Positions 335 through 26,265 of a stretch of DNA of 64,000 bases are shown here, in pieces (positions within the stretch are counted from its first letter, which is position 1; each line of letters opens with the position of its first letter). The notes under the pieces were generated by a model. It saw nothing but the letters and a program-made list of their open reading frames with translations. It ran no database searches and was not told the origin of the DNA. The stretch lies in contig JAFDHO010000001.1 of NCBI GenBank assembly GCA_019308745.1, positions 13,905 through 77,904 on the forward strand, read 5' to 3'. The translations under genes and the position numbers were made by a program. Origin of the DNA: Deltaproteobacteria bacterium. GTDB lineage: Bacteria > Desulfobacterota > DSM-4660 > Desulfatiglandales > HGW-15.

Positions 335-380
335 TTGACAAGACCCGCGGAAAATAATAGAAGATATCAAACGATCGTTT
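335..380 (+). promoter_or_regulatory. Promoter plus operator copy 1: TTGACA-N17-TAGAAG, then the palindrome AAACGATCGTTT (369-380)
   Basis: Perfect -35 hexamer at 335-340, 17-bp spacer, and a 12-bp perfect palindrome 5 nt after the -10. The same geometry recurs at four other promoters in this window. Confidence 0.6.
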
Positions 381-548
381 AATGTATCCGCGCTAACCCC
401 AAGAAAATCTTTTGATATCCTACAGATAGGCTAGATTAGTATCCTTAATGTGTTCATTTATTCACAGTAGCCTTTAGGAAGGATCAGATCCCCGAGGATT
501 TTGGAGGGGACCGGAGGTGTTGTTAACCTTTTTGTAAGGGGGAGAAAA

Positions 549-1586
549 ATGAAGAAAGCGTACATCTTTGTCCTTTTGTTTGCCTTTTCAATCTCTTTCA
601 TGGCACTTACGCCGGGCCCAGCAGTCTCAAAGCAAATTGAGTTGAGATTCAATTACTCCATGCCGGCTAAGGTCCCGCCGAGCACTGGCTGGGAATGGTT
701 TGCGCGGGAACTGACGCAACGGAGCGGAGGGAGGGTCAAGGTAACCACCTTTCCGCACGGTGCTCTTTTCAAGATCCGGCAGGCATGGGAAAATACCATT
801 GCAGGCACCGCAGATATCACCAATCTCAGCGTCAGGACCTTTGCCAAACGACTGCCCCTGACCTCGGTGACTATGCTCCCCACCATCTACTGGCCGGACA
901 CGGTGCAGGGGACCGTGGCGAGTGGCAGGGCCATAATGACCCTCTACAAAGAGTTCCCGGAAATCCAAAAGGAATTCAAGGACCTCAAGGTATTGTGCTT
1001 TAACCAGCTGGCCGCCTATCACCTCCTGACCAAGAAGCCCGTTCGCAAGCCCTCTGATCTCAAGGGCATGAAGATCGGGGCCGGCGGGATCATGGGCGAG
1101 TTCATCCAGAGCCAGGGGGGTAGCTTTGTCGCCATCGCACCACCCAAGTCCTATATGTCCCTCAAGACCGGAGTTATAGACGGCATGGCCATGGCCTGGA
1201 GTTCCATGGGGGTTTACAAGCTCTGGGAAGTGGCGGGCTACGTAAATGAAATCACCATCGGCCGCGTTCCCCTCCCGGTGGTCATGAACAAACAGGCTTG
1301 GAATTCCCTGCCCCCTGATCTACAAGACCTGGTTATGAAGCTGGCGGACGAACAAATGGAGTACGGAACCGAGACCCTGTATGATAATCTGGTCAGGCAG
1401 AAGAAGAACATGATCAGAAACGGGGTCGAAGCTTACGTTCCCACCGGGAATGAAGCCAAGGCCTGGATCAATGCCTTTGAACCCCTGGAAACGAGGTGGC
1501 TGGCTGAAAGGGAAAAGCAAGGTCTCAGGGTAGCGCCAAAGGTCCTCATGCGGTACATGGAGCTCGCGTCAAAGGCAGGGGAGTAG
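549..1586 (+). CDS. dctP: TRAP transporter periplasmic solute-binding protein (DctP family)
   Basis: ATG at 549 preceded by GGGGGAG. N-terminal signal peptide MKKAYIFVLLFAFSISFMALTPGPAVS. The length and sequence are DctP-like, and it is followed by DctQ and DctM genes. Confidence 0.85.
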   Translation: MKKAYIFVLLFAFSISFMALTPGPAVSKQIELRFNYSMPAKVPPSTGWEWFARELTQRSGGRVKVTTFPHGALFKIRQAWENTIAGTADITNLSVRTFAKRLPLTSVTMLPTIYWPDTVQGTVASGRAIMTLYKEFPEIQKEFKDLKVLCFNQLAAYHLLTKKPVRKPSDLKGMKIGAGGIMGEFIQSQGGSFVAIAPPKSYMSLKTGVIDGMAMAWSSMGVYKLWEVAGYVNEITIGRVPLPVVMNKQAWNSLPPDLQDLVMKLADEQMEYGTETLYDNLVRQKKNMIRNGVEAYVPTGNEAKAWINAFEPLETRWLAEREKQGLRVAPKVLMRYMELASKAGE

Positions 1587-1632
1587 AGGTACATCCCTCG
1601 CGGATAAGCGGTTCGATTCTCCCGCGGATCGG

Positions 1633-1660
1633 GGGAGGTTTGGGAACCTCCTTTCCTTTC
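1633..1660 (+). terminator. Hairpin plus T-rich tract between dctP and dctQ (possible partial terminator or mRNA stabiliser)
   Basis: GGAGGT (1634-1639) pairs with ACCTCC (1646-1651), followed by TTTCCTTTC. Confidence 0.35.
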
Positions 1661-1760
1661 AAGGATGGAAGGGCCACCTCCCCTTTTCCTTTTTATCGGG
1701 GGGCTTTGGGGTTATTGCCCCCCGGGTTGGCGGAATCCTATTGCAGCTCGGAGAGTAAAG

Positions 1761-2288
1761 ATGGCAGAAGGAGAAACCCGCGCAAAAGGACCATCTGGCG
1801 CTATTGAGAGAGGACTCTACAGGGTAAGCATATGGATCGGTGTCCTCTCGGCCACCGCCCTGTGCCTGATGATGCTCGTCACTGTCGTGGATGTGGGTGG
1901 GCGGTATCTCCTTAACAAGCCCATATACGGGGCCTACGAACTGATCGGGATGCTCCTTGTTGCCGCCGGGCCACTCGGCATGGCCCTCTGCCAAAAGGAT
2001 CGGAAACACATCGTAGTATCCCTCATTGTGGACAAGCTCCCTGCCAGGACCCAGACCCTCATAAATGCCGTCACCCTGTTCCTGAGCTTCTTTACCTACG
2101 GCATCATCACCTGGCAGATGTCCAGACTAACGGTTCAATATTGGATGAGGGGGAGGGGCGGAGTCTCGCCCGACCTGGGCATATCCCTGGCCTACGTCTC
2201 AGTCGTTTTTGCTGTTGGAGCCTTCCTGTTCACTCTCGTGCTCTTGTTGCACTTCGTTCAATCTCTTCGGGGCATGGCAAGGAGGTAA
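1761..2288 (+). CDS. dctQ: TRAP transporter small permease (DctQ family)
   Basis: ATG at 1761 after GGAGAG. About 175 aa with four hydrophobic helices (VSIWIGVLSATALCLMMLVTVVDV...). Lies between the DctP and DctM genes. Confidence 0.8.
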   Translation: MAEGETRAKGPSGAIERGLYRVSIWIGVLSATALCLMMLVTVVDVGGRYLLNKPIYGAYELIGMLLVAAGPLGMALCQKDRKHIVVSLIVDKLPARTQTLINAVTLFLSFFTYGIITWQMSRLTVQYWMRGRGGVSPDLGISLAYVSVVFAVGAFLFTLVLLLHFVQSLRGMARR

Positions 2289-2293
2289 CTGCA

Positions 2294-3592
2294 GTGGATC
2301 CGGCTGCAATTGGGCTCATCGGCATCTTTTTCCTCGTTGTCTTCATTTTCGCGGGGGTCCCCGTAGGCGTGACCCTTGCCCTCATCGGGTTCGGCGGTTT
2401 CATCGCCATCCTGGGGCCTGATAGGGCCCTGTCAAACATGGCTCTCATCCCCTTTGAGACCGTTAACCGCTATTCCTTTGCGGTGATACCGCTCTTCCTT
2501 TTGATGAGCACCTTTGTGGGCCGTAGCGGCATCGGCGAAGATGCCTACAGGGCAGCCCGGGCGTGGGTGGGGCACATCAAGGGTGGCCTTGCCATGGCCA
2601 CGGTGGTGGCCTGCGGCCTCTTCGCCGCGACGAGCGGATCAAGCCTGGCCACGGCCGTTGCAATGGGGAAGGTCGCTTACCCTGAGATGAAGAAACTGCG
2701 CTACGACCCCAGGCTGGCCATAGGCTGTATTGCTGCCGGCGGATCCCTGGGATTGCTCATTCCGCCCAGCATGGCCTTTATCCTCATCGGGATACTCACG
2801 GAGGTCTCCATAGGAAAGCTCTTCATGGCCGGTATCATCCCGGGCATCCTGGAGATCGTCTCCTATGCCGTCGCCATTTACATCATGTGCAGGCGGAACC
2901 CTGCCATGGGCCCGGCGGTTGCCCCCGTCTCCATGCTTGGAAGAGTGAAATCCGTCAAAGACACCTGGATGGTGGGTGTCCTGTTCGTGGGGGTCATCGG
3001 CGGGATCTACGGCGGAGTCTTCACACCCACCGAGGCAGGGGGTGTGGGGGCATTCGGTGCTTTGGTCATCGGGCTGATCACGAGACGCCTCAACAGAGAA
3101 GATCTCAAGTTTTGCTTCATGGACACGGCCCGCCACACCGCAATGATCATCGTCATGCTGATCGGTGCCTTCGTCTTCATGCGATTCCTTGCCTATACCA
3201 GAATTCCCAACCTCGCCAGCGAATGGGTGATCTCCCTGAACATGCCACCCATACTCATCGTCATCGTTATTCTCGTCAGTTTCCTATTCTTTGGCATGTT
3301 TTTCGATATGTACGCCGTGGTCATCCTGACGTCCCCTATCCTGTTCCCCATCATGATGGACATGGGATTTGATCCGGTTTGGTGGGGCGTGATCATGTGC
3401 AGGATGATCGAGATCGGGATGGTGACGCCCCCCTTTGGCATAAACCTTTTCGGGCTGGCTGCATCGGCTGAGGTGCCGGTTGGCACCATGTACCAGGGGA
3501 TCATACCCTTTGTTATCGCGGATATATTCGTGGTGGCGGCCCTTGTTGCCTTTCCCATACTTTCAACCTTCATACCATACCACCTGATGTAA
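2294..3592 (+). CDS. dctM: TRAP transporter large permease (DctM family)
   Basis: GTG at 2294 lies 8 nt after AGGAGG, which overlaps the dctQ stop. 432 aa polytopic membrane protein (GVPVGVTLALIGFGGF...). The longer track ORF from 2141 overlaps dctQ and is less likely. Confidence 0.85.
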   Translation: MDPAAIGLIGIFFLVVFIFAGVPVGVTLALIGFGGFIAILGPDRALSNMALIPFETVNRYSFAVIPLFLLMSTFVGRSGIGEDAYRAARAWVGHIKGGLAMATVVACGLFAATSGSSLATAVAMGKVAYPEMKKLRYDPRLAIGCIAAGGSLGLLIPPSMAFILIGILTEVSIGKLFMAGIIPGILEIVSYAVAIYIMCRRNPAMGPAVAPVSMLGRVKSVKDTWMVGVLFVGVIGGIYGGVFTPTEAGGVGAFGALVIGLITRRLNREDLKFCFMDTARHTAMIIVMLIGAFVFMRFLAYTRIPNLASEWVISLNMPPILIVIVILVSFLFFGMFFDMYAVVILTSPILFPIMMDMGFDPVWWGVIMCRMIEIGMVTPPFGINLFGLAASAEVPVGTMYQGIIPFVIADIFVVAALVAFPILSTFIPYHLM

Positions 3593-3614
3593 GAAACGGG
3601 GGTCAAAGGGCGTG

Positions 3615-3881
3615 TCAGCCCGCTCTGAGAAAAAGGATTGCGACAGCCGCAGCGATCAGTGCCCCTGGAACCCCAATGAATATCAGGCCCATCCATGCGG
3701 CCCTGGTCTCCATCTCCTTGTAGGAAGCGACGAAATTCTGGCCTGCGAGGGCAAAGAGGGCAAGGGCGCAGGCCCCAAGGGGCCAGGCATACCAGGCAAC
3801 CTCGGTGCCCCCCTGTCGGTCCCACATGAGCAGCCTCATTCCACCCGCCCCGATGAGCAACCCGTACAAAAACCACCACAT
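3615..3881 (-). CDS. rdhB: Reductive dehalogenase membrane anchor protein (RdhB-like, 88 aa, about 3 TM helices)
   Basis: MWWFLYGLLIGAGGMRLLMW... small hydrophobic protein. Its AAAGGAGA RBS overlaps the end of rdhA, giving the classic rdhA-rdhB order. Confidence 0.7.
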   Translation of the reverse strand: MWWFLYGLLIGAGGMRLLMWDRQGGTEVAWYAWPLGACALALFALAGQNFVASYKEMETRAAWMGLIFIGVPGALIAAAVAILFLRAG

Positions 3882-3899
3882 TGCCGTGATATCTCCTTT

Positions 3900-5387
3900 C
3901 TATTCCAACAGGGTCCTTTTCGTGTCGTTGATCCCGTGGGGCGGCATATCCAGCCGCCACCAGGCTTCGAGGTCTCGTTGCCTTTGATATCCGAACACGC
4001 CGTCCATCTTGGTAATAAACCCGTTCACCAGACCCGTAGCGAAGGGGTTTTTCGAGATGGTGGCCTTCACGATCCTATGCATAAAGGACCTGTCCTTCTT
4101 GCTGAAGGGGCAGACGGCAAAACAGGTGGAACACCCCGCCGTCGAAACGGACCACCAGGTCCGGCAAAAAGTAGAGTTCTCATACCACGTCCTGTGCCCG
4201 GGATTGTTCCAGGGCCCTACCGGTTCCCAGAAGGGCTCTGTCTCCAGACTCAATGTCCCCGCAGGGCATTTCTCTGCGCACACCTTGCAGGTCTTACAGA
4301 AACGCAGGATCCCGGCATCGATAGGTTTGGTGGGGGCAAGAGGAAGGTCCGTGACCACCTTGAAGATCCTCTGGAGCGGCCCGTACTCCGGGCTGATCAT
4401 CCTGTTCAGACGGCTCATCTCCCCCAAACCTGCCATGACTCCCAGTGCCGGGGCAATGCCGAGGCCGTTGAACCACATCCCCATGAGCCCCTGGTAGCCC
4501 AGGACATGAAGGAAGGTCTGGAGCCTGTCCATGATGTTTCTGGCCCTCCCATAGGCCGACCCGCTCGCAGAACTTGAAAAGGCAGTGGGTGCCAACCCGG
4601 ATCGCCTTTTGATCAACTCCTCAGACATCTGGAGGGAAAAGACAATCACCCATCGTGCCTTTTCCGGGATTACCCTCTTGTCCTCCGTCTCGTAGGCCTT
4701 GTCAACGCCTTCGAATTCGAGCCGCTTTCCGTCCAGGGCATCCACGGCATATATCAGCTTACGGTGGCGCTCATCGAGCTCCACAAAGCCCACCTGGCTC
4801 GCACCGAAATGCCTGAGGGCTGCCCGTATCATTCTGGAGTTCTCTTCGGGCCTGCCTTCATACCTCGGGATCCCCAGCTCTTCAGGGCTCAGGGGCCTCG
4901 GCCTGGCCGGATCGTGGAGCCTTGAAACGGTCACATCCCTCGTATAGAAGTGCCCCTCCTCCTTTGTCTCGGAGATCGTGTTCGCCCAGGTGCCCAAGAA
5001 GGTAACCGGCACGGAGCCCGACTGTCCGTAAGATATGTCAAGGGCCCGGTCCCTGAGGGTGTATCCCGGCTTGTTATCCAGGATCCACTGTTTGAACTTC
5101 TCCTCCCGTTCCCTGTTGAGTTGCTTTGCCTTTTCCTCACCCACATACCTTCTCCAGGACACCTGCTGGATCTTTGTCGCATCAAACCGCTCCATTCCTT
5201 CCCAATCCACCTCCATGGTCGGCTCATCAACCCAGCTCACCCACCAGGGCCGTCGCCATTCCCCTATGGGAGAAGCCATGACCTCGTCCAGGTCGTGATA
5301 GATCCTGGCCCCGTCCCGTTGATTTCTCTCATCCAGACCCAGGTTCTTCATAGTGGCACGCCCGCTCACTGTGCTGCGCTTCTTCAT
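3900..5387 (-). CDS. rdhA: Reductive dehalogenase homologue (RdhA), corrinoid/Fe-S enzyme
   Basis: N-terminal HDLDEV...RPWWVSWVDEPTMEVDW block typical of RdhA. C-terminal FCKTCKVCAEKCPAG (CxxCxxCxxxCP) and CSTCFAVCPF (CxxCxxxCP) motifs. GGGAGA RBS before ATG at 5387. Confidence 0.85.
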   Translation of the reverse strand: MKKRSTVSGRATMKNLGLDERNQRDGARIYHDLDEVMASPIGEWRRPWWVSWVDEPTMEVDWEGMERFDATKIQQVSWRRYVGEEKAKQLNREREEKFKQWILDNKPGYTLRDRALDISYGQSGSVPVTFLGTWANTISETKEEGHFYTRDVTVSRLHDPARPRPLSPEELGIPRYEGRPEENSRMIRAALRHFGASQVGFVELDERHRKLIYAVDALDGKRLEFEGVDKAYETEDKRVIPEKARWVIVFSLQMSEELIKRRSGLAPTAFSSSASGSAYGRARNIMDRLQTFLHVLGYQGLMGMWFNGLGIAPALGVMAGLGEMSRLNRMISPEYGPLQRIFKVVTDLPLAPTKPIDAGILRFCKTCKVCAEKCPAGTLSLETEPFWEPVGPWNNPGHRTWYENSTFCRTWWSVSTAGCSTCFAVCPFSKKDRSFMHRIVKATISKNPFATGLVNGFITKMDGVFGYQRQRDLEAWWRLDMPPHGINDTKRTLLE

Positions 5388-5477
5388 GATTCTCCCTCAG
5401 CCTCAGAGGTCTTGTGCAAAAGTGCGAAATCTGGTAATTGTTTCAAAAGCTTCCTGAAAAAAGGAGAAACACATTTT

Positions 5478-5521
5478 AATGATCGTTTGTTCCTGATAGC
5501 ATTAACATCCGTTGCTGTCAA
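5478..5521 (-). promoter_or_regulatory. Promoter plus operator copy 2 (minus strand): TTGACA-N17-TATCAG-gaac-AAACGATCATT, upstream of rdhA
   Basis: The reverse complement of 5478-5521 reads TTGACAgcaacggatgttaatgcTATCAGgaacAAACGATCATT. The geometry matches the other four copies. Confidence 0.55.
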
Positions 5522-5701
5522 GGCCAATTTCTTGCCGAAAGGAGACCTGTTCCATCATCGATGCGGTTCCATTCCTGGAGCGACATCGCATGCTTCATCC
5601 TTCGCAGGCAAAGCCTGGCAGCCACAGCCGTTGTGCATTGAGGTGAATGACGTCTCTCATGCCGAGTTACATGTAGTTTTTTATGGTGAAGGCGAATAAA
5701 C

Positions 5702-5745
5702 TTGACAGGATTCCGGGTGGACTATAGAATTTCTAATCGATCGTT
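5702..5745 (+). promoter_or_regulatory. Promoter plus operator copy 3: TTGACA-N17-TAGAAT-ttct-AATCGATCGTT
   Basis: TTGACA at 5702-5707, TAGAAT at 5725-5730, palindrome at 5735-5745. Lies 30 nt upstream of the TTG start at 5776. Confidence 0.6.
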
Positions 5746-5775
5746 CAGTAAATATTTTCCGGCGGTGGAGGTACA

Positions 5776-6549
5776 TTGAATCTGACGACGCTGACATACG
5801 AGAAGAAGGATCGAATCGCGTTCATCTCTCTGGCCAAGAGGATCGAGGAGGCCGGGTTGGCCCTTACCTTTGCGACGGAACTTTCCGAGGTGTGCTCGGA
5901 CATCCAGGCCGACAAGGACATAGGGGCAACCCTGCTATTCTGTGAGGAGAAGGATGCCCTCTCAATGGACGGCCATGTGCTGAGAGAGTGGCCGTGGCAA
6001 TTGGAAGGTGGCGAGGAAGGGCCGGTTTCCCTGGCCGAACCCGTGGCGAGACTGGAACAGCCCGTGGTCGCGGGAATACCGGGAGATGCCGTAGGTCCCG
6101 GCCTTGAACTGGCCCTGACCTGTGACTTGAGAATTGGGTCTCGGGGCTCCGGTTTTGGACTCCCCCATGTCAGATACGGTCTTATGCCCTGGGATGGAGG
6201 CATCCAGAGGCTTTCAAGGTTGATAGGGAAAGGCAAGGCCATGGAGATGATTCTCACCGCTCAAAGGATAGAGGCACAGGAGGCTTACAGGATCGGCCTG
6301 TTGAACCGGGTGGCCTCTGAGAATGAACTCAAAGACCTGGCCCTCAATATGGTGACTGAAATGGCTTCAAAGGCCCCCCTGTCCATGGCCTATGCCAAAG
6401 AAGCCGTCAACAAGGGCATGGATTTGACCCTTGAGCAAGGATTGCGCCTTGAGGCGGATCTCTACTTCTTGATACAGACGTCGCAGGATCGCACTGAAGG
6501 CATCAAGGCCTTCCAGGAAAAGAGGGCGCCCCATTTCAGGGGAAGGTAG
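5776..6549 (+). CDS. Crotonase-superfamily protein, divergent N-terminal half
   Basis: TTG start after GGTGGAGG. The C-terminal two thirds is crotonase-like (GPGLELALTCDLRIGS, EGIKAFQEKRAPHFRG). The usual NRPxxxNA and FCAGADL blocks are not recognisable. Confidence 0.7.
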   Translation: MNLTTLTYEKKDRIAFISLAKRIEEAGLALTFATELSEVCSDIQADKDIGATLLFCEEKDALSMDGHVLREWPWQLEGGEEGPVSLAEPVARLEQPVVAGIPGDAVGPGLELALTCDLRIGSRGSGFGLPHVRYGLMPWDGGIQRLSRLIGKGKAMEMILTAQRIEAQEAYRIGLLNRVASENELKDLALNMVTEMASKAPLSMAYAKEAVNKGMDLTLEQGLRLEADLYFLIQTSQDRTEGIKAFQEKRAPHFRGR

Positions 6550-6564
6550 CGGGGAGTCTTCTCT

Positions 6565-7335
6565 ATGGACAACGCATTCAAGACCTTGATCTACGAAAAG
6601 ACGGAAGAGGGCATTGCCTACGTCACCCTGAATCGCCCCGGGGCATTGAACGCCTACAACATCCAGATGAGAGACGACCTCTACGAGGTCCTCAGGGCCA
6701 TAAGGGATGACGATGAAGTCAGGGCCGTCATATTCAAGGGTTCTGGAGAAAAGGCGTTCTGTGCGGGCGCAGACCTGGAGGAATTCCTGACCGCCCCCTC
6801 CCCCACTGTTGCGCGCCGGGTACGATTTGATCGGGATGTCTGGGGGTTGTTCCTGAGTCTTCCTCAACCCCTGATTGCAGCCTTACACGGGTACGTCCTG
6901 GGCTCGGGCATTGAAATGGCGCTGTGTTGTGACATACGAATTGCCTCTGATGATTCCAAGTTCGGCCTGCCGGAGATGGGCCTAGGTATCATACCCGCGG
7001 CAGGGGGGACCCAGACCCTTCCCCGCACCATAGGGCGCTCGAGGGCCATGGAGATGCTCCTCACCAATAGGTGGATCAGTGGGGAAGAGGCATATCTCTT
7101 CCAGTTGGTCAACAGGGTCGTTCCCAGGGACCAGCTTCTTCCCACTGCAAGGGATATGGCGAGGAGGATTGCGTCCCAAGACCCGAAGGCCGTGAGGTTT
7201 GCCAAGGAGGCCGTGAACAGGGGCCTCGACCTGTCCTTGTCTGAAGGGCTGCGTTTGGAAAGGGCCCTGTTCTTGCGGTTGACAAGGGGTCGTAACCAGG
7301 AGGGTACGGATCACAGAACAACAAGGGAGGCGTGA
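6565..7335 (+). CDS. Enoyl-CoA hydratase/isomerase family protein
   Basis: VTLNRPGALNAYN, FKGSGEKAFCAGADLEEF and GYVLGSGIEMALCCDIRIAS are canonical crotonase motifs. Confidence 0.85.
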   Translation: MDNAFKTLIYEKTEEGIAYVTLNRPGALNAYNIQMRDDLYEVLRAIRDDDEVRAVIFKGSGEKAFCAGADLEEFLTAPSPTVARRVRFDRDVWGLFLSLPQPLIAALHGYVLGSGIEMALCCDIRIASDDSKFGLPEMGLGIIPAAGGTQTLPRTIGRSRAMEMLLTNRWISGEEAYLFQLVNRVVPRDQLLPTARDMARRIASQDPKAVRFAKEAVNRGLDLSLSEGLRLERALFLRLTRGRNQEGTDHRTTREA

Positions 7336-7460
7336 AAGAATTGACAAACAAAGTTGGAGAAAGATATGTGTGCAAGAAGTGCGGGGCTGAGTTCATAGTG
7401 ACCAAGGGCGGCAAAGGGTCACTCGTGTGTTGTGGCCGGCCCATGGAGATCAAAAAATAG
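7332..7460 (+). CDS. Desulforedoxin-like small metal-binding protein (42 aa)
   Basis: GTG at 7332 overlaps the upstream TGA (GTGA). Reads VKELTNKVGERYVCKKCGAEFIVTKGGKGSLVCCGRPMEIKK, a CxxC...CC pattern with the spacing of desulforedoxin or the Dfx N-domain. Too short for the ORF track. Confidence 0.55.
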   Translation: MKELTNKVGERYVCKKCGAEFIVTKGGKGSLVCCGRPMEIKK

Positions 7461-7509
7461 CCCTAGAAAACAACCCTTTAACGTGACATACTCTTGGAGG
7501 TGTTCGTAC

Positions 7510-7650
7510 ATGGCCCAACTCGGCAAGCGATACAGGTGCGAGCTATGCGGCACGGAAGTACTCTGTACCAAGGCTGGAGAAGGAACTCCCCTGTGCTGTG
7601 ACAAGGAGATGGTGGTTCAAGAGCCGAAACCGCTTCCCTCATCTGATTGA
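7510..7650 (+). CDS. Desulforedoxin-like small metal-binding protein (46 aa), second tandem copy
   Basis: ATG at 7510 lies 9 nt after GGAGG. Reads MAQLGKRYRCELCGTEVLCTKAGEGTPLCCDKEMVVQEPKPLPSSD, the same CxxC...CC pattern. Confidence 0.6.
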   Translation: MAQLGKRYRCELCGTEVLCTKAGEGTPLCCDKEMVVQEPKPLPSSD

Positions 7651-7717
7651 ACTCCCCGGAATTCCCCTGGCAAGCTTGAGCAAAGTCCTATTGTGTGAGG
7701 GGTGATTATCAAGTCCC

Positions 7718-8374
7718 ATGCCCTTTGATCTGGCAGAGGAGGCCCTTGTTGCCTCGGGTCTTGGGGATGACCGAGAGGTCACCCGGTACCTTGATAGGCT
7801 CGAGCAGTTGCATTCGAGATTTCTGGCATCATCCGGGGGAATGGCCTCTTCTTCCCCGGCCGAAAAGGCGGGGAAGCTCTTTCGCTTCCTGTGGAGAGAA
7901 AAGCCCTTCCGATATGGGAGAAACGGCCCCTTCAGGTTTCATACCGTTATCACAAATCAGCTAAGCAGGGATAGGTCTGTGGTTGGGAACTGCCTGGGAC
8001 TGACGCTTCTTTACAACAGCCTCCTCCTCAAACTTGATATTGATGCGAAGGCCGTGTATCTTGAAGACGCCTTTGGCGAAGGGCCCCATGTCTTATCCCT
8101 GATCATCAGGGAGGGGGAGCCCCTGGAAGTCGAGAATATATTCCCCTGGGGCTTCGACTATAGGGGCCATCTTTCAAATCCTTCCAGGGTCCTGTGGGAC
8201 AGTCAAGAACTGGTGGCAGACCTGTACCTCAGCATGGGGAATCGGTACTTCAAGGACTCATTCCTCGATGAGGCGTTGACGGCATATGATATGGCCCTTC
8301 GCCTGAATCCCGGCTATGAGAAGGCCCGCCTCAATAGGCTTATCCTTCTGGAGAAAAGGGCAGGGAAGAACTGA
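7718..8374 (+). CDS. Hypothetical protein with a C-terminal TPR-like repeat; possible transglutaminase-like core
   Basis: VGNCLGLTLLYNSLLLKLDIDA...PHVLSL resembles a transglutaminase-like Cys/His core. ALTAYDMALRLNPGYEKARLNRLILL is TPR-like. The assignment is weak. Confidence 0.4.
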   Translation: MPFDLAEEALVASGLGDDREVTRYLDRLEQLHSRFLASSGGMASSSPAEKAGKLFRFLWREKPFRYGRNGPFRFHTVITNQLSRDRSVVGNCLGLTLLYNSLLLKLDIDAKAVYLEDAFGEGPHVLSLIIREGEPLEVENIFPWGFDYRGHLSNPSRVLWDSQELVADLYLSMGNRYFKDSFLDEALTAYDMALRLNPGYEKARLNRLILLEKRAGKN

Positions 8375-8439
8375 GAGAAATAGCCCGTTGCAGAGAGAGG
8401 GATCCAAGTCTTACTTGGTTGCCCTATAGGATTCGCTTC

Positions 8440-9660
8440 ATGGATGAAGAATACAGCCATTGTGCCCTGCCGCTGGCCAGCTTGAGGATCCTGGACCTTG
8501 CCCATGGGAGGACCGGGTTTTGCACCAGGCTCTTGGCTGACCTGGGGGCGGAGGTCATCATGGTGGAAAGGCCGGGAGGGGACCCCGCACGAGAATGCGG
8601 GCCCTTTTTCGAGGATTCGCGGGGCAAGAGGGGAAGCCTCTCCTTTTTCTACGGCAACACCAACAAGCTCAGCATAACCCTCAACCTGCAAAACCCCAAA
8701 GCCGGCTCCATTTTCCGGGGTCTGGTCAAACAGGCGGACGTATGCGTTGAGGCGTTTGCCCCGGGATATCTTGATCGGCTCGCGCTTGGTTACCAGGACC
8801 TTCGGCGCCTAAACCCGAGACTCATCCTAGCCTCCATATCCGGGCACGGTCAGGATGGCCCTCGGAAAGGATACAAGACCTGTGACCTGGCAGCTTCTGC
8901 CTTCGGCGGGCAGATGTATGCCACGGGGTCTCCTTCAAAGTCGCCATTGAAGGCCTTTGGCGAGCAGTCCTATTTCTCCGCTTCCCTATTCGCCGCCCTT
9001 GGAATCCTCATGGCTCTCAAGGTGCGAGACAAGAGCGGCAAAGGAGACCACCTCGACATCTCCATGCAGGAGGCGGTCGCCGGGACGCTGGAACATGTCC
9101 TGCCCAGCTATCAGGGGAATGATTCTGTTCCAGGAAGGAGGGGACCGAGGCACTGGAACAATTCCTTTGCCATACTCCCATGCAAGGACGGATTCATCCA
9201 GCTAACGCCCCTTCTCCAGTGGGACACCCTCGTGGAGTGGCTCGACAGCGAAGGCATGGCCGAAGACCTGAAGGACGAAAGGTGGCGTGACCCGTCCTAT
9301 CGGCTCTCGCACGCAGATCATATTGTTGAGGTCCTGAGTCGATGGACCTCTGCCCACTCCGTAACGGATCTCTTTGAGAAAGGACAACTCATGCGCTTCC
9401 CCTGGGCACCGGTGCAAACCCCTTCGGAGATAATCCGCTGCCCACAGCTCAGGGCCCGGGGATTCTTCGTCGCGGCCGGGAGGACGGGTAAGGAGAGACA
9501 TCTGGAAGCCCCTCGATTTCCTTTCAAGTTCAATCCTCCCCTCCCCCTGACCCATCTCCCTCTTCCTGAGCCAGGGGAGCACAATATGCGAATCTACGGC
9601 CAAATGCTTGGCTTGACCGGTGAGGAAATAGAGGAACTCAAGGAAGGGAGGATAATCTGA
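8440..9660 (+). CDS. Family III CoA-transferase (CaiB/BaiF/Frc type)
   Basis: LRILDLAHGRTGFCTRLLADLGAEVIMVERPGGDP N-terminal signature and about 400 aa length. ATG at 8440 is preferred over TTG at 8419. Confidence 0.85.
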   Translation: MDEEYSHCALPLASLRILDLAHGRTGFCTRLLADLGAEVIMVERPGGDPARECGPFFEDSRGKRGSLSFFYGNTNKLSITLNLQNPKAGSIFRGLVKQADVCVEAFAPGYLDRLALGYQDLRRLNPRLILASISGHGQDGPRKGYKTCDLAASAFGGQMYATGSPSKSPLKAFGEQSYFSASLFAALGILMALKVRDKSGKGDHLDISMQEAVAGTLEHVLPSYQGNDSVPGRRGPRHWNNSFAILPCKDGFIQLTPLLQWDTLVEWLDSEGMAEDLKDERWRDPSYRLSHADHIVEVLSRWTSAHSVTDLFEKGQLMRFPWAPVQTPSEIIRCPQLRARGFFVAAGRTGKERHLEAPRFPFKFNPPLPLTHLPLPEPGEHNMRIYGQMLGLTGEEIEELKEGRII

Positions 9661-9666
9661 GCGACC

Positions 9667-10854
9667 ATGGATAGGGGAGCCTTGACAGGGTTGAGGGTCA
9701 TTGACTTGGGTCGTGTTCTGGCAGGTCCCTATGCAACAAGGGTTCTTGCCGATTTCGGGGCAGAGGTCATCAAGGTTCAATCCCGGAAGACCGCGACCGG
9801 CGCAGAGTCCAATGGATCCGCCTATTTCAGGCATTGGAACCGGAACAAGAGGAGTGTTACCCTGGATATGAGCCATCCGGAGTCAAGGGACCTCCTGCTG
9901 AAACTCATATCCAAGTGCGACATTCTGGTAGAGAACTTCTCCTCCAGGGTCATGGCAAACTGGGAACTGGACTATGAGGTGCTCCGCAGTGAGAATCCCG
10001 GGCTCATCATGTTGAGCATGTCGGCAGCGGGACAGACCGGTCCCTGGAAGGATCTTGTCGCCTTCGGCCCCACGATTCAGTCCCTGGGTGGTCTGTCGTA
10101 CCTGACGTCCTATTCCGGTGATCATCCCACGGGTCTCAGCCATTCCTACGGGGACATCATTGCGGGTCTCTATGGTGCAATCGCCGTGCTCGTGGCCCTG
10201 GAGCACAGGAAGGTTACCGGCAAGGGAATGCTCATAGATCTGAGCGAGTATGAAGCCCTGTGCACGGCCCTGGGCCCAACCCTGATGGATGCCTCTGTCA
10301 ATGGGAGCAGAATACGCCCGCGGGGGAACCATGCGGACCACATTCCCGCCGCCCCCTATGGGTGTTACAGGTGCAAGGGAGAGGATAGGTGGTGTGTCAT
10401 TGCTGTCTTCAATGAGGAGGAGTGGCAGGCCCTGTGCAGGCTCATGGGAAGGCCGGAATGGTCAAGGGAAGGCCGATTCTCCTGCCTATCGAGGCGAAGG
10501 GCACACAGGGACGTGCTGGACAGACTTCTTGAAGAATGGACCGCTCGCTTCCCCGCGGAAGAACTTGTCGAACTCTTGCAGAGATCCGGGGTCCCTTCGG
10601 GGATCGTTCAAGGCCCCGAAGACCTCCTTGAAGACCCCCAGCTCGCGGCACGGGGATTCTTTTCGACGTCTTCTTCTCATGACGGGAGGAATATCTTTGT
10701 TGACGCCTACCCCATAAGATCCAGGAATTGGAAAAAGGGCCCGGTAAACCCAGCCCCCCAACTTGGAGAAGATAATGACTACGTGTTCAGGGAATTGCTG
10801 GGGCTCAAAGAGGAAGAGGTTTCCTACTATGTCACCAAAGGCGTTATTGGCTAG
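9667..10854 (+). CDS. Family III CoA-transferase, second adjacent paralogue
   Basis: LRVIDLGRVLAGPYATRVLADFGAEVIKVQS signature, 395 aa, only 6 nt after the previous gene. Confidence 0.85.
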   Translation: MDRGALTGLRVIDLGRVLAGPYATRVLADFGAEVIKVQSRKTATGAESNGSAYFRHWNRNKRSVTLDMSHPESRDLLLKLISKCDILVENFSSRVMANWELDYEVLRSENPGLIMLSMSAAGQTGPWKDLVAFGPTIQSLGGLSYLTSYSGDHPTGLSHSYGDIIAGLYGAIAVLVALEHRKVTGKGMLIDLSEYEALCTALGPTLMDASVNGSRIRPRGNHADHIPAAPYGCYRCKGEDRWCVIAVFNEEEWQALCRLMGRPEWSREGRFSCLSRRRAHRDVLDRLLEEWTARFPAEELVELLQRSGVPSGIVQGPEDLLEDPQLAARGFFSTSSSHDGRNIFVDAYPIRSRNWKKGPVNPAPQLGEDNDYVFRELLGLKEEEVSYYVTKGVIG

Positions 10855-10990
10855 CCTGTGTCCCTTTACCAATCGGGAGCCAAGGGCGTTGGGAAATGCG
10901 CTTTCCGTACATTGACGTCCGGTTGGGATTTTGCAAAATGACTCCTAAACCAGATTGTTGTGCTCAACTCGTAGCTCAGGCTGTTGGCAC

Positions 10991-11020
10991 GGCCCGGGAG
11001 TTGTCCGAGGGCCTCTTTTT
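10991..11020 (+). terminator. Probable intrinsic terminator after the CoA-transferase pair
   Basis: GGCCC (10991-10995) pairs with GGGCC (11009-11013), followed by TCTTTTT. Confidence 0.45.
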
Positions 11021-11098
11021 GCAAAACCCCGACCGGGCGCTACAGATTTCCAAATGGATTTGCGCATTTCTAGTGAACTGAAACCAGCGAAATTCTTC

Positions 11099-11142
11099 TT
11101 GACAACAAGTGGCGGTGGAAATAGCATTATCAAACGATCGTT
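11099..11142 (+). promoter_or_regulatory. Promoter plus operator copy 4: TTGACA-N17-TAGCAT-tatc-AAACGATCGTT
   Basis: TTGACA at 11099-11104, TAGCAT at 11122-11127, palindrome at 11132-11142. Confidence 0.6.
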
Positions 11143-11299
11143 AGGTCATGTCTTGTTGGGTTCCTCACTAGAATCCGTGGGCTGAAAACTACCTGATGCT
11201 CGCCCTCAAGAGGGTTGGGATGTCTTTTCGGAGTGACTGCTGGGAGGCGCCTGAGGCGCTTTGGGAATTGTAAGTTCTTTTTGAAGCTTGGAGGGAGCA

Positions 11300-12628
11300 A
11301 TGAAGGAGTGGAAGGCCGAATTCGAGAAAAAGTTGATCACGGCCGAGGAGGCCGCCAAACTGGTCAAGCCGGGTGACAGGGTGTCCTTTACCCTCGGCCG
11401 CGAAGCCTTTTCCATAGGGTTGGCCATTGCCGCCCGCATAGGGGAGCTGCGTGATGTGAAGGTATTTCAACCCTTTCCGGGTTATGACTTCGGCTGGTAC
11501 GATGCAGGCTGGGAAGAGTTCTTCCAAATAAGCATCCTGATGCCCACGGCGGTCTCCCAACAGATGATAGATGAAAGGAGGGGCGACATCGAAGTCAATG
11601 ACATCCTGTGCTGGAGCGAGAGCACACTGTGTCAATCCGATGTCGTGATAACCGAGGTCTCCCCGCCGGACGAAAAGGGGTTCTGCAGTTTTGGGGCGGC
11701 GCTGTGGAACAAGAGAAAACACATCAAACAGGGAAAACTTGTTCTTGCAGAGATCAATGACCGGCTCATAAGGACCTTCGGTGATAACTTTGTCCACGTC
11801 TCCGAGATCGACTATTTTGTCCCTCACCAGGAATCGGGCGGAGTGGCATCCAGCGGCAGTCTGGGGGGCAGGGAAAAGAAGGAACCGGCCCAGTACATGA
11901 AGGATATCACCCGCCACGTCTCCGGCCTGATAGGAGACGGGGACACGGTGCAGATCGGCATCGGGAGGGTCTCGGAACGACTCGTGGAACTCGGCCTGTT
12001 CGATGGAAGATCCGATATCGGCTGGTACTCCGAAGCCACGCCGCCGGGCGTGATCAAGCTCGTGCGGGAAGGCGTGATCAACGGCAGGAAGAAGAATTTC
12101 TTCCCCGGTAAAGTGATTGTAACCACCCTGGGTGGGGCAACAAAAGACGATATGGACTGGGCCAGCAACAACCCCCTCTTTTGGCTGGCCGATGTGGACT
12201 TTCTCTGGGATGTGAGGAATATCTCCGCAAATGATAATATGGTGGCCATCAACCAGGCCCTCACCGTAGATCTCTCCGGTCAGGTATCTGCCGAAAGCAT
12301 CGGGCACAAGATATTCAGCAGTGCAGGAGGGCAGACGGCATTTGCCTACGGCGCCCTCCTCTCCAAGGATGGAAGGGGAATTACCGTACTGCCCTCCACC
12401 GCTAAGACGAGGGACGGAAAATTGACTTCAAGGATCGTCCCCGCCCTCGAGCCCGGTACCGCCGTCACCGTCCCCCGTAACTGCGTTGACCACGTGGTCA
12501 CGGAATATGGCATCGCAAGACTCAGGGGCAAATCCCTTCGTCATCGGTGCGAGGAGCTTATCGCCGTGGCCCATCCCGACTTCAGAGAGGAACTCCGCGA
12601 CTCCGCCAGAAGGCTCTACTGGCCCTGA
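11300..12628 (+). CDS. Acetyl-CoA hydrolase/transferase family protein (4-hydroxybutyrate CoA-transferase-like)
   Basis: ATG at 11300 after GGAGGGA. ITAEEAAKLVKPGDRVSF N-terminus and SSAGGQTAFAYGA (GGQ.DF..GA-type) block. Confidence 0.8.
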   Translation: MKEWKAEFEKKLITAEEAAKLVKPGDRVSFTLGREAFSIGLAIAARIGELRDVKVFQPFPGYDFGWYDAGWEEFFQISILMPTAVSQQMIDERRGDIEVNDILCWSESTLCQSDVVITEVSPPDEKGFCSFGAALWNKRKHIKQGKLVLAEINDRLIRTFGDNFVHVSEIDYFVPHQESGGVASSGSLGGREKKEPAQYMKDITRHVSGLIGDGDTVQIGIGRVSERLVELGLFDGRSDIGWYSEATPPGVIKLVREGVINGRKKNFFPGKVIVTTLGGATKDDMDWASNNPLFWLADVDFLWDVRNISANDNMVAINQALTVDLSGQVSAESIGHKIFSSAGGQTAFAYGALLSKDGRGITVLPSTAKTRDGKLTSRIVPALEPGTAVTVPRNCVDHVVTEYGIARLRGKSLRHRCEELIAVAHPDFREELRDSARRLYWP

Positions 12629-12650
12629 CAGTTCTTGCATTTTTCCGTGA

Positions 12651-14237: not shown

Positions 14238-14460
14238 AGGGCCTCCCTGAAGAAAAAAACACATCCTATTCGGCCGGGGCTGACCCGTCTGCACCCGGGC
14301 TCCTGGATATTGAATGTACACCATAACTTCTGGATCGGCAATTCCAACATTCTTGCTCGACCCCGCTCCCAAACCATCGACGTGATCGTTTGAGTCCTGC
14401 CCGAGACGGCAAAGATTCTCCCCTCCTTTTTCAGACCCCGGGGCAAAGCCTTGTTTTTCC

Positions 14461-14490
14461 TTGACACCGCCGCTTTGTGCGCCATACACT
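14461..14490 (+). promoter_or_regulatory. Candidate sigma70 promoter TTGACA-N18-TACACT (no operator palindrome)
   Basis: Perfect -35 at 14461-14466 and TACACT at 14485-14490, upstream of the MoaD-like genes. Confidence 0.35.
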
Positions 14491-14576
14491 TTTTTCTCAT
14501 GGTTGCCGGGTATCTCATCTCCTCCCGGGACCGGTCGGACAAAGATGATCCAAATGAATAAACCCATTCATGGACA

Positions 14577-14789
14577 ATGGAAAGGGCCGAAAGGTTCGCA
14601 AAACCCGGATTGACTTCCCTCTACGCCCTAGTGGCCAAAAGAATCACCGGGGACTGGAGAAACCGAAGCTCACTTCAAACAGCCGAAATGACCCTTTGTG
14701 GGGGCGAAGCATATCCTGATGAGATGAACACGCCTGCTAAGGATGGTGACGAGGTCTATATCATTGTGGGGATGGATCATGTAGGGTAA
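14577..14789 (+). CDS. Truncated MoaD/ThiS-like paralogue (possibly a pseudogene remnant)
   Basis: The C-terminal part LYALVAKRITG...GGEAYPDEMNTPAKDGDEVYIIVGMDHVG aligns with LRNLAAKFPG...NGESAYPEELSKDVKEGDEIHITTVIGDG of the next gene. The N-terminal beta-strands are missing, and a stop lies 6 codons upstream of the ATG. Confidence 0.3.
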   Translation: MERAERFAKPGLTSLYALVAKRITGDWRNRSSLQTAEMTLCGGEAYPDEMNTPAKDGDEVYIIVGMDHVG

Positions 14790-14813
14790 TCATGGTTTGG
14801 GGAGGCACAGGAT

Positions 14814-15089
14814 TTGGGTATTAAGATAAACATACACCCTGTCCTCTTTGGGGCTACGAATGATCAAGAGGTCGTGGAAGTAGATGGCCGCACGGTCGAA
14901 GAGTGTCTCAGGAATCTTGCGGCCAAGTTCCCCGGCCTCGGAAGGAAGCTCTTTGACAGGGATGGAAGGAAGTTGCTCGGCATCTTTGACATCTGGGTCA
15001 ACGGGGAGAGCGCATACCCTGAAGAACTGTCAAAGGATGTCAAAGAAGGAGATGAGATACACATTACCACGGTCATTGGGGATGGGTAG
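14814..15089 (+). CDS. MoaD/ThiS-family ubiquitin-like (beta-grasp) protein, C-terminus GDG rather than GG
   Basis: 91 aa. The pattern KINIHPVLFG...VEVDGRTVEECL...VNGE...V.EGDEIHI is MoaD-like. TTG start after GGGGAGG. Confidence 0.65.
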   Translation: MGIKINIHPVLFGATNDQEVVEVDGRTVEECLRNLAAKFPGLGRKLFDRDGRKLLGIFDIWVNGESAYPEELSKDVKEGDEIHITTVIGDG

Positions 15090-15141
15090 ACTAACTTGCT
15101 AGATAAGCATCTGAGGTCTACGTGGGGTTCTGGTTTTGACC

Positions 15142-15879
15142 ATGATTTCAGCTCTTGAGCGCCAAAGGTATCAAAGGCAAATAGGGATCAAAGAGGTCGG
15201 TGAAGAGGGACAAGAAAGGCTCAAGGCCGCAAAAGTCCTCGTCGCCGGTGCTGGCGGCCTTGGCTCCGCATCCCTGCCCTACCTCGTAGCAGCCGGGTTT
15301 GGCGCCATCAGGATCATCGATCAGGACCTGGTAGAGCTCAGTAATCTTAACAGGCAGATATTACACTGGACCGAAGACATCGGCCGACCGAAGACGGCAT
15401 CTGCCATGGACAAGCTCGGGAGGCTCAACCCCGAAGTAGACATGGAGTCATTCCAGGAGAAGATTACGAACAAGAATGCCGATGCCCTGGTAGGTGACTG
15501 TGACCTGATCGTCGACGCCTTGGATAACCTGTCAACCAGGTATATCTTGAACAGGGTAGCCATCGAAAAGGGCATACCCTTCTTCCATGGGGCTGTTTCA
15601 GGCTTCGAAGGCCGGGCCATGACCATTATACCCGGCAGGACTGCATGCCTCCATTGTTTTTACCGGGGGCGCCTCAAGGGCAAGAAGACGCCCGTGATAG
15701 GCGTCACCCCCGCGATCATAGGGATTATCCAGGCCACGGAAGTCATAAAATACGTCCTTGGGACCGGCAAACTCCTCACGAACACCCTGATGGTCTACGA
15801 CGGTTTGAGCGCCACCTTTAACAAGTTCAAGATAAACAGGGATCCCAACTGCAAGGCCTGTGGCCACCTCCCCTCCTGA
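15142..15879 (+). CDS. ThiF/MoeB/HesA-family E1-like adenylyltransferase
   Basis: VLVAGAGGLGSASLPYLVAAGFGAIRIIDQDLVELSNLNRQ nucleotide-binding block plus two CxxC pairs (CLHC, CKAC). TTG at 15136 is an alternative start. Confidence 0.85.
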   Translation: MISALERQRYQRQIGIKEVGEEGQERLKAAKVLVAGAGGLGSASLPYLVAAGFGAIRIIDQDLVELSNLNRQILHWTEDIGRPKTASAMDKLGRLNPEVDMESFQEKITNKNADALVGDCDLIVDALDNLSTRYILNRVAIEKGIPFFHGAVSGFEGRAMTIIPGRTACLHCFYRGRLKGKKTPVIGVTPAIIGIIQATEVIKYVLGTGKLLTNTLMVYDGLSATFNKFKINRDPNCKACGHLPS

Positions 15880-15969
15880 TGGCACGGGCCCCAGTCCTTT
15901 CAGCCCTCCTCCAACTCCTGTCGACCCACAAGAGCCTATAGACAGGGCGCCAGAGCCCAAAAAAATATC

Positions 15970-16014
15970 TTGACAACATATCGCCGCGCCAATAATATGA
16001 ACAAACGATCGTTT
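15970..16014 (+). promoter_or_regulatory. Promoter plus operator copy 5: TTGACA-N17-TAATAT-gaac-AAACGATCGTTT
   Basis: TTGACA at 15970-15975, TAATAT at 15993-15998, perfect 12-bp palindrome at 16003-16014. Lies 15 nt before ATG 16029. Confidence 0.65.
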
Positions 16015-18389: not shown

Positions 18390-18579
18390 TAAAGGCCCTG
18401 GGAAAGGGATAGGTGCAAGCACGCAGGAGAATGGAAGTAGTGGAATACTGGAAAACCCATCCCGCCATTCCACGTTCCCCATTGAGTCAAGGGACAAAGG
18501 CCACGATCATGGGCGTTTTACAGGTATTCACCGGCTTTATTGAAAGAACAGCATTATCGTTTGGAAATAGGAAAAGGAG

Positions 18580-20097: not shown

Positions 20098-20308
20098 TCG
20101 CTGCCGGCATCCTCGCATCAGGAGGGGAAAACGAGGTATCCGCCTGTGACCCCGTGAGCAATGCCCCCCCTCACAGGTCCGACGATGATTCCTTTCAGCG
20201 GGGTTCATTTCGAGCCGACCCTGTGATAGGATTGCTACTGGAGGCACTATCCCTCGGCCCAACCTGCGGGCCGTGCAAACAAATTATGGAGAAAGGGGGA
20301 CCCTATTC

Positions 20309-20476
20309 ATGACTAACGCCAAGAAAGCAGAGATGATGGTCAGGTGTAAGAACTGCATAAAGCGGTTTGAAGTGAAGCCCAAGGCGGACAAGGCAAAATG
20401 CCCCCATTGTGGCGTGGAGTACCGCATATCCTGGCCGAAACCCGACCTGCCCTACATCAGGGGACTGGCCAAATAG
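20309..20476 (+). CDS. Small zinc-ribbon protein (55 aa)
   Basis: MTNAKKAEMMVRCKNCIKRFEV...KCPHCGVEYRI has two CxxC knuckles. ATG at 20309 after AAAGGGGGA. Confidence 0.5.
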   Translation: MTNAKKAEMMVRCKNCIKRFEVKPKADKAKCPHCGVEYRISWPKPDLPYIRGLAK

Positions 20477-20503
20477 GCCCCGCTATCCCTAAGGAGGATT
20501 CGG

Positions 20504-22393: not shown

Positions 22394-22410
22394 GAGCGAG
22401 GAAAGCGACG

Positions 22411-22917
22411 ATGGAAAAGACTATTCTTGTAGATGCAACCAAGTGCACGGGATGCAGGACATGCGAACTGGTCTGCTCGGTCAAAAAGGAGGGAATCGCA
22501 AATCCTTCAAAGGCGCGAATCACGGTGATCCGCTTTGAGGATATCGTGTTTGAAGTCCCCATGATCTGCCAGCAATGCGCGGATGCGCCGTGCATGGCCG
22601 TATGTCCGGTAAAAGCCATTGGTCGCGACACCGATTCCGGGGTAGTACATGTGGACGATGATCGATGCATCGGGTGTAAAGCCTGCATGAGCGTATGCCC
22701 CTTCGGCGCCCTGGGTTTTGACCCCGTTGACAAGCGGATGTTCAAATGCGACCAGTGTGAGGGGGATCCGCCCTGCGTGAAGTTCTGTGAACCCGGGGCC
22801 TTGCAATATGTCGATGTTTTTTCTGTGAGGGCCAGGAAGAGCTGGGACAGGGCACGAAACCTCTCAGAGATCGCCCGGAAATTCCATCCGGAATCAGCGC
22901 GCATGGATCTGCCTTAG
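22411..22917 (+). CDS. Polyferredoxin with four [4Fe-4S]-type motifs (AOR electron-transfer subunit type)
   Basis: Four cluster motifs: CTGCRTCELVC, CQQCADAPCMAVCP, CIGCKACMSVCP and CDQCEGDPPCVKFC. Confidence 0.85.
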   Translation: MEKTILVDATKCTGCRTCELVCSVKKEGIANPSKARITVIRFEDIVFEVPMICQQCADAPCMAVCPVKAIGRDTDSGVVHVDDDRCIGCKACMSVCPFGALGFDPVDKRMFKCDQCEGDPPCVKFCEPGALQYVDVFSVRARKSWDRARNLSEIARKFHPESARMDLP

Positions 22918-23007
22918 GCCGCGGGATGAGTAAGGATCCGGGGTCCAGGGGACCAGGCTTCGGGCCACTCTCTGAAAGGGCTATGGTCACCAGCAACTGA
23001 CAGTGTA

Positions 23008-23135: not shown

Positions 23136-23243
23136 AACGGAGTATTAGGGGGAGACCATCTTCTTTGGCTCCAGGGGAACCGGATCTTCGGCGGTCCCAG
23201 GGGGCCCTCCCTACATCAGTGTCCAATTATGTGAGGCAGGCCC

Positions 23244-25320: not shown

Positions 25321-25347
25321 GGGATAGGCCCATTGAGAGGGTAAACC

Positions 25348-26235: not shown

Positions 26236-26265
26236 GTCGTAGTGGGCCGCAGGGGGTTCCGCGGA

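Follow-up and report, generated by a model that had tools for sequence, protein, structure and literature searches.

A palindrome shared by five promoters of a dehalogenase and CoA-catabolism island as the putative operator of a single repressor

Five promoters with one palindrome

The analysed stretch, 64,000 nucleotides (nt) of contig JAFDHO010000001.1 (positions 13,905 to 77,904, forward strand; assembly GCA_019308745.1) from an uncultured sediment Deltaproteobacterium and hereafter called the window, carried an island of genes for uptake, reductive dehalogenation and CoA-dependent catabolism. The gene families were assigned by Pfam annotation of about 60 open reading frames (ORFs). Five σ70-type promoters, with TTGACA, a 17-nt spacer and a TAnnnn −10 box, were each directed at the adjoining gene, and at all five the 12-bp palindrome AAACGATCGTTT, or a form of it differing at one or two positions, followed the −10 box after 4-5 nt. 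An earlier reading made from the letters alone (the sequence-only reading) had described these promoters, and pattern searches recovered all five at the same places and with the same perfect −35 box, spacer and palindrome distance.

Site 1 (335-380, plus strand) consisted of the −35 box TTGACA at 335-340, the −10 box TAGAAG at 358-363, atatc and AAACGATCGTTT at 369-380, and a leader of about 168 nt connected it to dctP, the first gene of the dctP-dctQ-dctM operon for a tripartite ATP-independent periplasmic (TRAP) transporter (549-3592, plus strand; genes at 549-1586, 1761-2288 and 2294-3592). Site 2 (5477-5521, minus strand), with TTGACA at 5521-5516, TATCAG at 5498-5493, gaac and AAACGATCATTA at 5488-5477, was separated by about 89 nt from rdhA (3900-5387; PF13486, Dehalogenase), which formed a unit with a VcrB-like rdhB gene (3615-3881; whole unit 3615-5387, minus strand). 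Site 3 (5702-5746, plus strand) showed TTGACA at 5702-5707, TAGAAT at 5725-5730, ttct and AATCGATCGTTC at 5735-5746, about 29 nt before the first enoyl-CoA hydratase (ECH) gene of operon 3 (5776-10854, plus strand). This operon contained two enoyl-CoA hydratases, two desulforedoxin-like ORFs, an ORF of 131 amino acids (aa; 7979-8374) with weak TPR matches and two family III CoA-transferases. At site 4 (11099-11143, plus strand), TTGACA at 11099-11104 and TAGCAT at 11122-11127 were followed by tatc and AAACGATCGTTA at 11132-11143, and the leader of about 156 nt ended at an AcetylCoA_hydro/4-hydroxybutyrate-CoA-transferase-like gene (11300-12628, plus strand). Site 5 (15970-16014, plus strand), with TTGACA at 15970-15975, TAATAT at 15993-15998, gaac and again AAACGATCGTTT at 16003-16014, lay about 26 nt from the start codon at 16041. 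The operon behind it, operon 5 (16041-33331, plus strand; extent judged from the same-strand genes), began with a fused double CoA-transferase III, UbiD, a Zn ribbon protein, an aldehyde:ferredoxin oxidoreductase (AOR) and a ferredoxin, and continued with subunits of 2-oxoacid:ferredoxin oxidoreductase, two molybdopterin oxidoreductases and a 2-hydroxyacid dehydrogenase. A gap of 327 nt at 22917-23244 could give room for an internal promoter.

When up to two mismatches were allowed, the palindrome occurred seven times in the window against 1.34 expected, and TTGACA-N17-TA occurred seven times against 0.80 expected; in both cases, none of 100 shuffles reached seven. The two sets coincided at five places with a fixed offset. 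All five sites were intergenic, with intergenic DNA making up 10.7% of the window (P about 2e-4 for at least five of seven), and the other two palindrome matches (30196 and 37749) were located inside genes and had a broken CGATCG core. The 17-nt spacers and the flanks of the five sites were unrelated to each other, and the sites are therefore not copies of one duplicated cassette. Three promoters that the sequence-only reading had used for comparison, at 14461, 34571 and, on the minus strand, 46138, were confirmed to be free of the palindrome.

A possible degenerate sixth site, AAACGATCACGT, matched the palindrome at 9 of 12 positions and was found at 14380-14391 on the minus strand, about 140 nt ahead of the amidohydrolase gene, which starts at 14237. 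No convincing −35/−10 pair accompanied it; it may be a decayed or weak site, and its membership in the regulon is doubtful. The amidohydrolase and the unit of a small ORF, ThiS and ThiF had no promoter-palindrome motif in front.

The palindrome in relatives and in public sequences

Two sets of relatives were compared, one of contigs picked by the DNA pattern and the other of contigs picked by protein homology (loci L150 and L153). The evidence from L150 and L153 is free of pattern bias because these contigs were found through their proteins. In L150, which came from a different sample and encoded a CoA-transferase 82% identical to that of the window, TTGACA-N17-TAATAT-tatc-AAACGATCGTTT stood before the orthologous CoA-transferase-UbiD-AOR operon, with a spacer wholly unlike that of site 5. 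L153, which came from the same relative as L150, carried three palindrome sites, before dctP, a second dctP and a Fer4-AOR operon, at distances of 5 nt, about 12 nt and 0 nt, respectively, from the −10 or −10-like box. The first of them (2981, minus strand) had the same −10 box and palindrome as site 1 and a spacer of 18 nt. Since the palindrome was kept with the genes in L153 while its spacing to the −10 box shifted, it is an element in its own right, and the fact that it follows the genes while the promoter register drifts argues for a protein-binding operator and not for a core-promoter element.

Among the pattern-selected contigs, two rdhA orthologues (L082 and L119; 75% protein identity) were preceded by TTGACA-N17-TAATGT/TAGTGT-aatc-AAACGATCGTTA. 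The promoter-palindrome module was also found before a ThiS-ThiF neighbour in L142 and before Fer4/Zn-ribbon/AOR operons with 56-58% identity in L054, L063, L070 and L090; the sites of L142 and L054 were similar to site 5. In an alignment of 11 promoters, five from the window and six from other organisms, the invariant positions were confined to CTTGACA, the first two bases (TA) of the −10 box and AA-CGATC-TT. In all 11, an A-rich stretch resembling an UP element and a C directly preceded TTGACA; in the window these stretches were located at 325-334, 5522-5531, 5692-5701, 11089-11098 and 15960-15969. Judged by their near-consensus boxes, the five promoters look intrinsically very strong and would not need an activator; tight repression would therefore be needed.

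The palindrome was absent from more distant orthologues with 63-74% identity (L143-L146 and L151), so that the regulon is limited to a narrow lineage. Other regulators were found at the same loci, namely MarR, IclR and a LuxR-type two-component system. In L143, a marR gene (11457-11915) directly followed rdhA (RdhA 74% identical) at the place where the window has rdhB. Close RdhA relatives are thus wired to different regulators.

The composite pattern TTGACA-N17-TA-N8/9-AAWCGATCRTT was scanned in public data and matched 52 genome loci and 89 metagenome loci, all from other organisms, with neither the genome nor the samples of the window among them. A TetR-family gene lay directly downstream or divergent within 350 bp at 28 of the 141 matches, which corresponded to 23 of 108 unique sequences or, after clustering, to 15 of 86; for the clusters, the binomial P was about 2e-6 against an assumed background of 4%. 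Nearly all of the TetR-like ORFs in the matched loci adjoined the motif. A divergent TetR gene was found in four sediment contigs (L062, L113, L120 and L130) and in a Deltaproteobacteria metagenome-assembled genome (MAG; L025), and Pfam confirmed TetR_N plus TetR_C_13 in L062, L120, L130 and L025. In L025 the TetR gene was divergent from a pair of genes for an acyl-CoA synthetase and a hydratase, and the best solved relatives of its product were MbdR and FadR/YsiA proteins. Pattern matches also preceded thiolase (L034 and L037) and 3-hydroxyacyl-CoA dehydrogenase genes (L007 and L051), and CAAACGATCGTTTG preceded thiolase in Chloroflexi contigs. Another, Firmicutes-type group consisted of autoregulated TetR genes behind a TTGACA promoter in which the operator GTAAACGATCGTTTAC occurred twice, once in the spacer between the two promoter boxes and once at +1.

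This dual-operator module was widespread, mostly in gut MAGs of Clostridia (L004, L009, L011, L036, L040, L043, L045 and L053, with metagenome counterparts), and a methyltransferase-like gene followed the TetR gene in L004 and L011. A longer related palindrome, AAAACGATCRTTCGTTTT (AAACGA-N4-TCGTTT), was seen in Rhodospirillaceae MAGs (L007 and L014, which are the same contig CAJWAR010000063.1, and L051), where it preceded both a TetR gene and a 3-hydroxybutyryl-CoA dehydrogenase gene, and in a Terriglobia MAG (L026), where it preceded a TetR gene. These loci look like a separate beta-oxidation regulon. A recognition helix common to the motif-adjacent TetR proteins was considered and rejected, since the helices were diverse; owing to the same diversity, no single TetR subfamily can be named. 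A literal literature search for AACGATCGTT returned only primers and microRNAs.

A candidate repressor and its possible effector

The closest published counterpart of the palindrome was the operator of PaaR (TTHA0973), the TetR-family repressor of phenylacetate catabolism in Thermus thermophilus HB8. PaaR binds CNAACGNNCGTTNG, and the promoter of its own gene carries the native site AACAAACGACCGTT at −3 (PMC6651687). The native site was identical to AACAAACGATCGTT at site 5 in 13 of 14 positions, with site 2 one base further off, and the window palindrome also fitted CNAACGNNCGTTNG. TetR operators are typically short palindromes (about 12-18 bp) over the −10 box or the start of a σ70 promoter, and the 12-bp palindrome, 4-5 nt past the −10 box at all five promoters, agrees with this. 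PaaR resembles the proposed system in its operator class and in serving several promoters of an aromatic-acid CoA pathway. Its effector, reportedly described by Sakamoto et al. in 2011, is phenylacetyl-CoA. Unlike the island, which has no regulator gene in or near it, the PaaR cluster includes the regulator gene, which is autoregulated; the PaaR optimum derived by restriction endonuclease protection, selection and amplification (REPSA), AACnAACGTTnGTT, has a spacing shorter by 2 bp; and PaaR belongs to another phylum and to aerobic phenylacetate degradation, whereas the island encodes an anaerobic dehalogenase, a phthalate-type decarboxylase and AOR.

In Azoarcus sp. CIB, the TetR repressor MbdR controls four σ70 promoters for anaerobic 3-methylbenzoate degradation. 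Its operators cover both the −10 box and the transcription start, and its inducer, which releases it from the DNA, is 3-methylbenzoyl-CoA, the CoA thioester formed first in the pathway (PMC4424350). The arrangement proposed here is similar, with one repressor for several σ70 promoters of an anaerobic aromatic catabolic cluster and an operator over the start, but the MbdR operator (ATAC-N10-GTAT, 18 bp) is unrelated in sequence, and mbdR is autoregulated and located inside its cluster. The acyl-CoA-responsive TetR repressors of the FadR/YsiA and PsrA type control hydratase, dehydrogenase and thiolase genes, and similar genes followed the public palindrome matches. The PsrA box is AAAC-N2-4-GTTT; the window sites conserve a central CGATCG besides the outer AAAC/GTTT, and the regulon differs from those of FadR, YsiA and PsrA by also comprising TRAP uptake, reductive dehalogenation and CoA enzymes of the aromatic type.

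Taking these lines together, we lean, with modest confidence, towards the palindrome being the operator of one dimeric helix-turn-helix (HTH) repressor that is encoded outside the 64 kb, is most likely of the TetR family, would sense an acyl- or aryl-CoA in the manner of PaaR, FadR or MbdR, and would co-regulate the five units. The single-repressor regulon put forward in the sequence-only reading gained support in that the palindrome lay at the expected start of activator-free promoters, was found at these promoters only and was conserved before orthologues (L150, L153, L082, L119, L142, L054, L063 and L070). That reading had further taken the cognate factor to be probably encoded elsewhere, which agreed with the searches described below, and that its family could not be named; on the second point, the TetR association in public data and the similarity to the PaaR operator now point to TetR, although by inference.

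In the proposed mechanism, the operator would occupy about −3 to +10 of the expected start, and a bound repressor dimer would block open-complex formation or promoter escape. The substrate would enter through the TRAP transporter and be converted to a CoA thioester by basal CoA-transferase activity; the thioester, or the substrate itself, would then bind the repressor and release it from the DNA. Uptake, the reductive dehalogenase, the hydratases and CoA-transferases, and the decarboxylase/AOR/oxidoreductase operon would be derepressed jointly. An aryl- or acyl-CoA is suggested as the effector, as for PaaR, MbdR and FadR, because CoA chemistry dominates the regulon; the case for such ligand release is circumstantial and comes from the CoA-transferases, the hydratases and the phthaloyl-CoA-decarboxylase-like enzyme. 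The mechanism is conventional, indeed textbook, with PaaR and MbdR as close precedents, and the novelty, a modest one, lies in the target set that includes rdhA.

The genes behind site 5 offered some indication of the substrate. The best solved relative of the UbiD enzyme was phthaloyl-CoA decarboxylase (8oz5; E = 3.8e-82, compared with about 1e-38 for other UbiD enzymes), and the N-terminal and C-terminal halves of the fused CoA-transferase resembled subunits A and B, respectively, of benzylsuccinate CoA-transferase (PDB 9fn0). These first two genes (16041-20097) look like an anaerobic phthalate-type module, which, together with the adjoining RdhA, suggests that the substrate is a halogenated aromatic mono- or dicarboxylate. 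By inspection, the N-terminus of RdhA (MKKRSTVSGRATMKNLGLDERNQ…) had no obvious twin-arginine RRxFLK signal, yet a gene for a VcrB-like membrane anchor was next to it; the enzyme may face the cytoplasm and be catabolic. It is a more tentative proposal, which we would put forward as a possibility and not as an expectation, that a TetR-type aryl-CoA sensor encoded away from its targets ties this RdhA to the TRAP importer and an anaerobic phthalate-type CoA pathway.

For an uncultured sediment Deltaproteobacterium, the operator provides a definition of a regulon at the sequence level. It connects an otherwise uncharacterised RdhA with one particular importer and with CoA-dependent enzymes for aromatic acids (among them the phthaloyl-CoA-decarboxylase-like UbiD and AOR), and from this linkage the predicted substrate class is a halogenated aromatic carboxylate that is taken up and processed in the cytoplasm. 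The 12-mer can also serve as a probe for the regulator and the remaining regulon members in the MAG. Two-component systems are among the regulators of rdhA genes. Established control of rdhA further includes the CRP/FNR activators CprK/RdhK, the MarR-type RdhR, and σ54-dependent activators in marine Deltaproteobacteria (PMC6299228, PMC12090745). The present proposal shares with RdhR a repressor acting on rdhA, and it differs from all established regulators in having the operator at +1 of a σ70 promoter and also on uptake and CoA-catabolism operons. No case of TetR control was found in the papers examined on rdhA regulation, where text matches to “TetR” turned out to be words beginning with “tetrachloro”. 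If the TetR assignment is true, it would add a new regulator type for rdhA beyond CprK, MarR, two-component systems and σ54. The more tentative proposal of an aryl-CoA sensor, if true, would also be genetic evidence that this widespread sediment RdhA clade serves the cytoplasmic catabolism of halogenated aromatic acids and not respiration.

Signatures of the established regulators were looked for in the island. The dehalobox TTAAT-N4-ATTAA did not occur in the window with up to one mismatch, and no scanned ORF contained a CRP/FNR domain. No MarR domain was found in the window and hence no marR gene next to rdhA. The σ54 −24/−12 promoter (TGGCAC-N5-TTGC) gave five one-mismatch matches in the window against 4.3 expected, none of them upstream of the five units, and no Sigma54_activat domain was present among the scanned ORFs. 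No gene for a two-component response regulator was found in the island. The palindrome also did not correspond to the Gram-positive LexA SOS box (GAAC-N4-GTTC), as its half-sites are AAAC/AATC and its targets are catabolic or transport genes and not DNA repair genes.

Several observations weigh against a TetR-type repressor as the common regulator. The Pfam scan of the roughly 60 window ORFs, in which small unannotated ORFs were included (70 aa at 14577-14789, 131 aa at 7979-8374 and 76 aa at 10955-11185), detected no HTH regulator, and a local hidden Markov model of TetR_N found none in the window or in the left flank (L001); the sequence-only reading, which had recognised no HTH regulator gene in the 64 kb, was correct in this respect, and a repressor gene inside the island is ruled out by the scan. 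No HTH regulator was found in the left flank as far as −6.1 kb, and the 2 kb of right flank (L148) contained only CbiK and an ORF of 61 aa. The flanks, which had been suggested as the place of a regulator gene preceded by the palindrome, held no such gene in the 6 kb to the left and the 2 kb to the right. The closest relative (34 kb in L150 and L153, by Pfam) was equally devoid of HTH regulators, including the orthologous left flank in L153, so that no cognate TetR_N protein was seen near the sites in the window, L001, L148, L150 or L153. As to the public matches, by our own estimate about 35 of the 52 genome matches would be expected by chance, and the motif-adjacent TetR proteins were mostly from unrelated lineages with dissimilar recognition helices. 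The association supports a frequent use of this sequence class by TetR proteins and not an identification of the factor in this organism. The core invariance of the public matches is partly circular because the scan pattern fixed the core. Finally, the −10 boxes of sites 1 and 2 (TAGAAG and TATCAG) lack the usual final T, which leaves a margin of a few nucleotides in the placement of the transcription starts. In relatives (L070, L063, L142 and L055), the small ORFs adjoining the operator were considered as regulators and rejected, as they were PilZ, TctC or of no known function.

With no regulator gene visible in the island or its flanks, the palindrome could be the operator of a repressor from another HTH family (MarR, IclR, GntR or XRE) encoded elsewhere in the genome. 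This is the most serious alternative, and we regard it as a real possibility, though less likely than a TetR repressor. It draws on the distant rdhA relatives with marR next to rdhA (L143 and L146) or with an IclR gene at a distance of 7 kb (L144 and L145), and on the negative control of rdhA by MarR that is documented in Dehalococcoides (PMC6299228), but the loci with marR or iclR were wholly without the palindrome. The identity in 13 of 14 positions to a TetR operator from the literature and the TetR genes directly at the motif in the public scans, where other families were not systematically searched for, also speak for TetR and not for these families.

That the palindrome acts otherwise than as an operator, whether in the RNA at the 5′ end of the transcripts, in initiation or as a discriminator of this promoter class, or as a target of methylation or restriction with an effect on promoter activity, seems improbable. 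The palindrome would be partly transcribed, but a start inside it would leave only part of it in the RNA, and the five leaders shared no RNA structure, folded no better than shuffled sequences (z −1.6 to +0.7) and gave no Rfam matches. A core-promoter element would not tolerate the range of 0 to about 12 nt from the −10 box seen in L153. The core does contain GATC and CGATCG, the PvuI site, and CGATCG was rarer in the window than expected (8 copies against about 19), with four of the eight inside these operators; GATC, however, was over-represented (409 against 242 expected) and is hence no special mark, and the conservation extended to the AA/TT flanks beyond the methylation core. Still further from the data is an explanation by history alone, in which one promoter cassette was recently duplicated, or the likeness arose by coincidence, with no common regulator. 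The unusually perfect −35 box and the same spacing at all five sites would agree with a duplication, but the dissimilar spacers and flanks, and the same boxes kept before orthologous genes with different spacers in other species, would not, and coincidence is contradicted by counts that the shuffles never reached. Recent transfer of the whole island is argued against by the protein identities of 56-82%. The operator of a single, probably TetR-type, repressor thus remains the explanation that we prefer.

Other features of the window

The rest of the window contained xanthine-dehydrogenase-like genes and a cluster for cobalamin biosynthesis and transport of about 17 kb (46906-64000) beside the dehalogenase island. 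No cobalamin riboswitch was detected, with no Rfam match at the gathering threshold in the whole 64 kb. The sole signalling-type ORF in the window (34996-35895) contained GAF and HisKA domains without a HATPase domain and may represent a sensor kinase that has been truncated or split.

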